Shown: piece after piece, positions 24,155 to 25,318 of the stretch
Layout: the number at the start of each line of letters is the position of its first letter
Position numbering within the stretch: position 1 is the stretch's first letter
Assembly (NCBI RefSeq): GCF_003334385.1
Contig: NZ_QOWN01000009.1
Source of the DNA: Escherichia coli
GTDB lineage: Bacteria > Pseudomonadota > Gammaproteobacteria > Enterobacterales > Enterobacteriaceae
Direction: 5' to 3' (one strand)
DNA length: 64,000 nucleotides
Made by a program: the position numbers and the translations under genes
The notes under the pieces: model-generated
What the model saw: only the letters and a program-made list of their open reading frames with translations
Databases searched by the model: none
Told to the model about the DNA's origin: nothing

Positions 24155-25318
24155 ATGTTTGTAGAAGCATTGAAACGCCAGAACCCGGCGCTGATTTCCG
24201 CCGCACTAAGCCTGTGGCAGCAGGGCAAGATCGCCCCGGACAGCTGGGTGATCGACGTGGATCAGATACTGGAAAACGGTAAGCGGCTGATTGAGACGGC
24301 GCGGCTTTACGGCATTGAACTGTATCTGATGACCAAGCAGTTTGGTCGTAATCCGTGGCTGGCGGAAAAATTGCTGGCATTAGGCTACAGCGGCATTGTG
24401 GCGGTGGATTACAAAGAGGCGCGAGTCATGCGCCGCGCTGGTTTGCCTGTGGCGCATCAGGGGCATCTGGTACAAATCCCTTGTCATCAGGTTGCTGACG
24501 CCGTTGAATAGGGCACCGACGTCATCACCGTGTTTACTCTCGACAAAGCGCGGGAAGTTTCTGCGGCGGCGGTGAAGGCCGGGCGAATCCAGTCTGTGCT
24601 GCTTAAAGTTTATAGCGACGATGATTTTCTTTATCCGGGCCAGGAGAGCGGTTTTGCCCTCAAGGTGTTGCCGGAGATTGTCGCCGAAATCCAGAATCTG
24701 CCAGGGCTGCATTTAGCCGGACTTACCCATTTCCCTTGCCTGCTTTGGGATGAGGCTGTCGGAAAAGTTTTGCCGACACCGAATCTTCACACGCTGATAC
24801 AGGCACGGGATCAACTGGCGAAATCTGGTATTGCACTTGAGCAACTGAACGCGCCTTCAGCGACCAGCTGCACTTCGCTGCCATTACTGGCGCAATACGG
24901 TGTGACTCATGCCGAACCCGGTCATGCGCTGACGGGCACTATTCCGGCAAACCAGCAGGGCGATCAGCCTGAACGTATCGCGATGCTCTGGTTAAGTGAA
25001 ATCTCCCATCATTTCCGTGGCGACAGCTACTGCTACGGCGGCGGTTACTATCGTCGTGGTCATGCGCAACATGCGTTGGTGTTTACGCCAGAAAATCAAA
25101 AGATTACTGAAACCAATCTCAAAACTGTGGATGACAGCAGTATCGACTACACCCTGCCGCTGGCAGGCGAGTTTCCGGTAAGCAGTGCAGTGGTGCTCTG
25201 TTTTCGCACGCAGATTTTTGTCACCCGTAGCGATGTGGTGCTGGTGTCCGGTATTCATCGTGGCGAACCGGAAATCGTCGGTCGTTATGACAGTCTTGGA
25301 AACTCTCTGGGGGCGTAA
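24155..25318 (+). pseudogene. yhfX: yhfX (alanine-racemase-fold PLP enzyme) interrupted by in-frame TAG at codon 119
   Basis: Two same-frame ORFs (24155-24511 and 24530-25318) separated only by TAG at 24509-24511; joined they give the expected ~387-aa protein. Confidence 0.8.

Follow-up and report, generated by a model that had tools for sequence, protein, structure and literature searches.

The yhfX locus in the 64,000-nucleotide stretch of Escherichia coli DNA analyzed here (the window) raises the question of whether a gene that reads as two adjacent open reading frames has been inactivated or could still give rise to its product. The program-made list of open reading frames holds one at 24155–24511 (118 aa) and a second at 24530–25318 (262 aa, counted from the first GTG). 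Following the codons from the ATG at 24155 to the natural stop TAA at 25316–25318 revealed a single frame, interrupted solely by TAG at 24509–24511 (GTT GAA TAG GGC ACC). The open frame resumes straight after this TAG, and the six codons separating it from the GTG also belong to yhfX, confirming the initial annotation, which had described one gene split by an in-frame amber codon into two reading frames that share a frame and have only TAG between them. Read through, the frame comprises 386 sense codons plus the TAG and is collinear with the 387-aa K-12 YhfX as well as with PDB 4KBX, the K-12 YhfX protein crystallised in its full length. The observation of the amber split is correct, and since the comparison is deterministic, chance plays no part in it. 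The features of the locus are collected in Table 1.

Table 1. Positions of the yhfX lesion and of neighbouring features in the window.
Feature	Positions	Strand	Basis or remark
yhfX pseudogene	24155–25318	+	387-codon frame; identical to K-12 except for one base; synteny yhfZ-yhfY-yhfX-yhfW
Amber TAG in place of CAG (Gln119)	24509–24511	+	C>T transition at 24509
Truncated yhfX product, 118 aa	24155–24511	+	holds only barrel-domain residues 33–118
Downstream yhfX remnant ORF, 262 aa from GTG	24530–25318	+	no Shine-Dalgarno match upstream; codons as in K-12
yhfX/yhfW stop/start overlap TAATG	25316–25320	+	overlap read from the sequence; loss of coupling predicted
yhfW, php, yhfU, yhfT, yhfS	25318–30196	+	intact, tightly packed, co-directional; probable targets of nonsense polarity

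The window corresponds to the E. coli chromosome from envZ to tufA and could be aligned end to end with K-12 MG1655 (NZ_CP032667.1) at 99.95% identity, the differences amounting to 16 substitutions, a 13-bp deletion and a 1-bp deletion, with both deletions located in intergenic regions. For yhfX, 1163 of the 1164 nucleotides are identical, the sole difference being T in the window versus C in K-12 at position 24509; codon 119 is CAG in K-12, as had been predicted, and the 268 codons downstream of the TAG are identical in both. The K-12 gene (WP_000497334.1; PDB 4KBX) is found at the same locus, with yhfY upstream and yhfW downstream, and uses the same 387-codon frame, but in contrast to it the window version, with TAG instead of CAG at codon 119, is unable to code for the complete protein. 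When every gene annotated in K-12 was translated from the window sequence, yhfX was the only one of about 65 genes with a premature stop. The alignment with K-12 and the clean remainder of the window thereby bear out the earlier view that the other genes are full length and that yhfX suffered a point nonsense lesion, neither a frameshift nor a regional quality problem.

The same alignment exposed several further differences. A SNP at 61506 places TAA at codon 157 of rpsG (61037–61507), yielding a 156-codon gene, where K-12 has TTA and continues to 179 aa. In ECCHD184, rpsG is annotated in the short form, as in the window, and we take an end at codon 157 to be the normal non-K-12 form. The short form fits a strain that is not a K-12 derivative, and a K-12 laboratory derivative (supE background) was ruled out by the 16 SNPs and two indels relative to MG1655 together with the rpsG end at codon 157. 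On the minus strand, igaA (6527–8662), encoding the essential Rcs regulator IgaA, carries SNPs at 6858 and 7350 that result in the missense changes L438S and P602Q relative to K-12. With a 601-nt probe across both SNPs, two mismatches remained even to the closest match among 5426 complete E. coli genomes, and the exact IgaA protein of the window was present in five contigs, among them NCBI draft GCA_002190145.1. Missense changes in IgaA often lead to Rcs activation and mucoidy, and L438S/P602Q may be more relevant to the phenotype of this strain than the yhfX amber. The 13-bp deletion relative to K-12 (AAAAAATAAAAAC), which amounts to 10 bp relative to ECCHD184, lies within an A-rich intergenic tract of the nirC-nirD spacer (38141–38148) and is missing from the closest complete genomes. 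Nine substitutions are likewise not found in the nearest complete genomes (6858, 7350, 13347, 24509, 35284, 38473, 48040, 49383 and 57666). Five of them change proteins (two in igaA, yhfX Q119*, nirD R32H and yhfA N28K), two are synonymous and two intergenic, with a division into five transitions and four transversions; at numbers too few for a test, they look like a recent, little-purged set of mutations.

We next assessed what the amber removes from the protein. Pfam analysis of the sense version of YhfX identified Ala_racemase_N (PF01168) at residues 33–264 and YhfX-like_C (PF21279) at residues 278–374, in agreement with the initial description of the read-through product as an alanine-racemase-fold PLP protein of ~387 aa. 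The stop at codon 119 falls within Ala_racemase_N and ahead of YhfX-like_C, removing 269 of the 387 residues, that is 146 of the 232 barrel-domain residues (86 are left) along with the entire C-terminal domain. With the stop inside the barrel domain and this share of the residues gone, the domain boundaries argue that YhfX is almost certainly inactive in this strain. A phmmer search for assigning the PLP-lysine via solved alanine racemases gave no usable remote match; the catalytic lysine of YhfX is probably K61. Within the collection of papers covered, a literature search on the function of YhfX and the yhf cluster returned nothing informative, and GCA_002190145, LYBI01 and SRR30350187 were mentioned in none. 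By position and near-identity as well as by its two-domain architecture the gene is the yhfX orthologue, its frame being interrupted; owing to the TAG at codon 119 we file it as a pseudogene of the YhfX family of fold-type III PLP enzymes and not as a functional member.

The position of yhfX within its gene cluster suggests that the effect of the lesion may reach beyond a single protein. Downstream of the yhfX/yhfW overlap, yhfW and php overlap by ATGA, and the next three junctions measure 10–11 nt. Published tables group php, yhfS, yhfT, yhfU, yhfW and yhfX as one operon (PMC4448311). No convincing terminator was found on the + strand between yhfX and yhfS, and stretches of C over G downstream of the yhfX TAG were only modest. 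An early stop combined with exposed untranslated RNA is the classical condition for Rho-dependent polarity. Since the stop is located 806 nt before the yhfW start, translational coupling would be abolished and untranslated RNA exposed, and a polar loss of yhfW-php-yhfU-yhfT-yhfS expression is likely. The classical lacZ and lacI ambers of E. coli likewise arose by CAG to UAG changes, cause premature termination with expected Rho-dependent distal polarity and are restorable by a glutamine suppressor; unlike them, the yhfX amber is a polymorphism found in nature, it affects a gene of unknown function, and its polarity is a prediction. Of the proposed inactivation of the yhf pathway, the part concerning yhfX itself is thus well supported by a stop that interrupts the catalytic barrel domain midway, whereas for the pathway as a whole inactivation is predicted only via polarity and lost coupling.

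To place the mutation in time, we compared the locus with those of close relatives. The closest complete genome over 12–37 kb, TB06053, shows four differences in 25 kb and carries CAG at yhfX codon 119, while sharing yhfW T50K and yhfT D315G with the window; the best 25-kb matches among 5426 complete RefSeq genomes differ from it at 4–6 sites. A metagenome contig (L034) with the DamX D150E change of the window also has an intact yhfX with CAG. A 71-nt probe matched 3968 complete genomes, one of which (1/3968) was exact for the TAG version, the remaining 3967 not. Based on the 268 downstream codons unchanged from K-12 and the CAG in close relatives, the amber is young and arose recently within a small clade.

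The locus also proved to be lost repeatedly in the species. No match to yhfX was found in 350 of the 5426 complete genomes, and in strain MB57 an IS1A element interrupts the gene (NZ_CP073932.1, 397611–399550), an independent route to loss. Alleles with a K-12-type C-terminal part carry other lesions, namely Q102amber (L030), Q112amber (L029) and a +1 frameshift (L028), where the search with the 262-aa product biased ascertainment towards codons 102–119 and accounts for the clustering there. In addition, the reduced-genome strain DGF-298 is viable without yhfY to yhfL (PMC10652928). Taken together, the genomes with no match, the IS1 insertion, the DGF-298 deletion and the other ambers and frameshift show that yhfX is clearly expendable and often lost. 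Four further assemblies (L023, L024, L025 and L032) displayed many single-base deletions across yhfZ, yhfX, yhfW and php, resulting in chains of short open reading frames; these are probably long-read homopolymer errors and call for caution when counting public yhfX 'pseudogenes'.

A sense codon in orthologues and relatives, a real base (see below) and the loss of needed parts, as expected of a strain-specific nonsense pseudogene, were all found. We consequently consider, with a probability of roughly 0.9, that a genuine, recent and strain-lineage-specific nonsense mutation (CAG to TAG, Gln119amber) makes yhfX a pseudogene, with neutral decay as the most likely cause. In the sequence of events that we propose, ribosomes would terminate at the UAG after 118 residues via RF1, the factor established to act at this codon, and the resulting fragment, comprising only the initial third of the PLP-binding barrel domain and lacking the C-terminal domain, would not constitute an active YhfX. 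About 806 nt of yhfX mRNA would then go untranslated, yhfW would lose its TAATG coupling, and expression of yhfW-php-yhfU-yhfT-yhfS would probably be lowered by Rho-dependent polarity. The lesion would be tolerated, the yhf cluster being dispensable and repeatedly lost in E. coli, and would most likely be due to the neutral decay of a catabolic cluster that is seldom used.

The alternatives start from a second occurrence of the same lesion. In TUM1881 (NZ_CP128979.1, QVM90_RS01670), where PGAP lists yhfX as a pseudogene with 'internal stop', the gene carries the same Q119 amber with the same 118-aa and 262-aa split. In contrast to the window, this haplotype, which differs from the window yhfX at 48 of 1164 nt, belongs to a more widespread lineage, and the split is also present in many of its draft and metagenome assemblies. 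Some members of the lineage (L017, 4164–5386; L019, 3564–4786) additionally have yhfW split into 187-aa and 183-aa pieces, which suggests a stepwise decay of the cluster after the loss of yhfX. In another assembly (L016, 1–1173; GCA_902847085.1, CADHFX010000043.1), genes of the LysE family and for a mechanosensitive channel precede the amber-bearing yhfZ-yhfX in place of gph-trpS, reflecting genomic rearrangement or else a misassembled contig.

Selection or a recombination patch, and not neutral decay, might account for the occurrence of the same amber in a second haplotype of 4% divergence. Under the patch reading, a very short stretch acquired by recombination from the TUM1881-type lineage would have brought the TAG into the window, in place of an independent C>T change. 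Codon 119 bears this amber in an allele with differences at 48 of 1164 sites, the informative sites at gene positions 294 and 414 would hide a patch of up to 119 bp, and the 3' mosaicism of TUM1881-type alleles indicates that recombination does occur in yhfX. However, recombination tracts in E. coli are usually longer than the ≤119 bp available here, and amber codons arise most often by C>T at CAG. Moreover, Q102 and Q112, located in the same 34-codon stretch, have been independently mutated elsewhere, so that recurrence is to be expected given the depth of public sampling. Given that these neighbouring CAG codons are mutated elsewhere too, and given the great depth of public sampling, we favour an independent mutation for the window TAG and regard its import as unlikely.

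Alternatively, positive selection in certain niches of E. coli, and not neutrality, could underlie the loss of YhfX. This reading is based on the Q119 amber being fixed in two unrelated haplotypes together with the Q102 and Q112 ambers, the frameshift, the IS1 insertion and the absence of the cluster in other lineages, a pattern that is suggestive but biased, and we judge it to be quite improbable. If it were true, expression of YhfX or of the yhf pathway would be costly under some condition, and the convergent knock-outs might point to the substrate of the yhf cluster.

The independent nonsense mutation that we favour requires that the T at 24509 is real. A contig assembled separately in Logan (L031, SRA run SRR30350187), located by searching for exact copies of the 262-aa downstream product, its GTG written as M, carries the TAG in the same haplotype and matches 5715 of 5716 bases over window positions 22603–28318, the one difference being a private SNP at 23162; as this run may stem from the very same isolate or from a sister of it, what it confirms is the base call and not necessarily an independent strain. 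Window positions 1–18662 are 100% identical to NCBI draft GCA_002190145.1, in which the rare variants igaA L438S and P602Q and the hofN and damX changes recur exactly, indicating that the window is not error-prone. Site 24509 lies in no homopolymer and within neither a Dcm (CCWGG) nor a Dam (GATC) motif, and the context GTTGAA-C-AGGGC likewise led us to reject a methylation hotspot or a systematic nanopore error. From the TAG in the Logan contig, the reproducible rare variants and the site context, we conclude that the T at 24509 is a genuine base.

A sequencing or assembly error in a strain that truly has CAG would agree with the exact window yhfX sequence occurring in no complete RefSeq E. 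coli genome (best 1163/1164, n=5426). It would also agree with the draft GCA_002190145.1, which seems to lack the 118-aa product on a large contig, indirect evidence suggesting that TAG is absent from its yhfX. Against the combined observations on the base call, such an error is highly improbable. A look-up of the 118-aa fragment returned 32 contigs with exact matches, and their reading as a widespread amber was rejected, as these are truncations at contig ends: all 10 of the contigs fetched end at or ≤2 nt past codon 118, and the seven that reach into the next codon show C or CA, i.e. the wild-type CAG.

If the base is genuine, full-length YhfX could in principle still be obtained by decoding of the UAG. 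Programmed readthrough or recoding was rejected, the stop not being conserved (exact TAG probe match in 1 of 3968 complete genomes), and folding of positions 24495–24600 gave no unusual stimulatory RNA structure past the TAG (z = +0.64 versus shuffles). Near-cognate decoding of UAG, a rare event, leads mainly to insertion of Gln and would recreate wild-type YhfX, yet only at trace level.

The dependence on an amber suppressor that the initial annotation had offered as an alternative to inactivation envisages a supE- or supF-type tRNA, with which full-length YhfX would still be made and insertion of Gln would restore the exact wild type. It is well established that ambers derived from CAG are the class perfectly restored by a glutamine suppressor, and the downstream frame is intact. 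An intact frame is, however, equally expected of a young pseudogene. The 64,000 nt contain zero tRNA genes and thus no positive evidence for a suppressor, the strain is a natural non-K-12 isolate by its 16 SNPs and two indels versus MG1655 and its 156-codon rpsG, and suppressor tRNAs are uncommon in natural isolates. As yhfX is non-essential, no suppressor is required and no pressure to suppress is expected. Judged from the window, dependence on suppression is therefore unlikely, and we give rescue of YhfX by such a tRNA very little credence.

Least credible of all is an active barrel reassembled from the 118-aa fragment and a 262-aa fragment reinitiated at GTG 24530, which would draw on the in-frame GTG 19 nt after the TAG, a 262-aa product predicted by gene callers and this frame being intact in 8 of 8 TUM1881-type sequences examined, but is opposed by the missing Shine-Dalgarno match in the 20 nt preceding the GTG (AGGGCACCGACGTCATCACC), by a break within the barrel domain and not at a domain boundary, by the lack of conservation of the split and by the additional breakage of yhfW in some TUM1881-type members (L017, L019), which looks like ongoing decay and not maintained function. 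A naturally split two-chain enzyme was rejected likewise, since the downstream piece shows no Shine-Dalgarno match of its own.

With the nonsense pseudogene as the preferred reading, the lesion is an ordinary one, of a known gene and of a kind already known and flagged by annotation pipelines, and it carries little importance beyond correct annotation. For this strain, the appropriate label for yhfX is a pseudogene with an internal stop, in place of two genes, and metabolic reconstructions should assume that the yhf cluster is probably non-functional or under-expressed. As a lineage marker, the amber SNP could identify members of a small phylogroup-A-like clade. For the species, it adds one further example to the repeated erosion of the uncharacterised yhfZYXW-php-yhfUTS cluster, which E. 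coli can do without.
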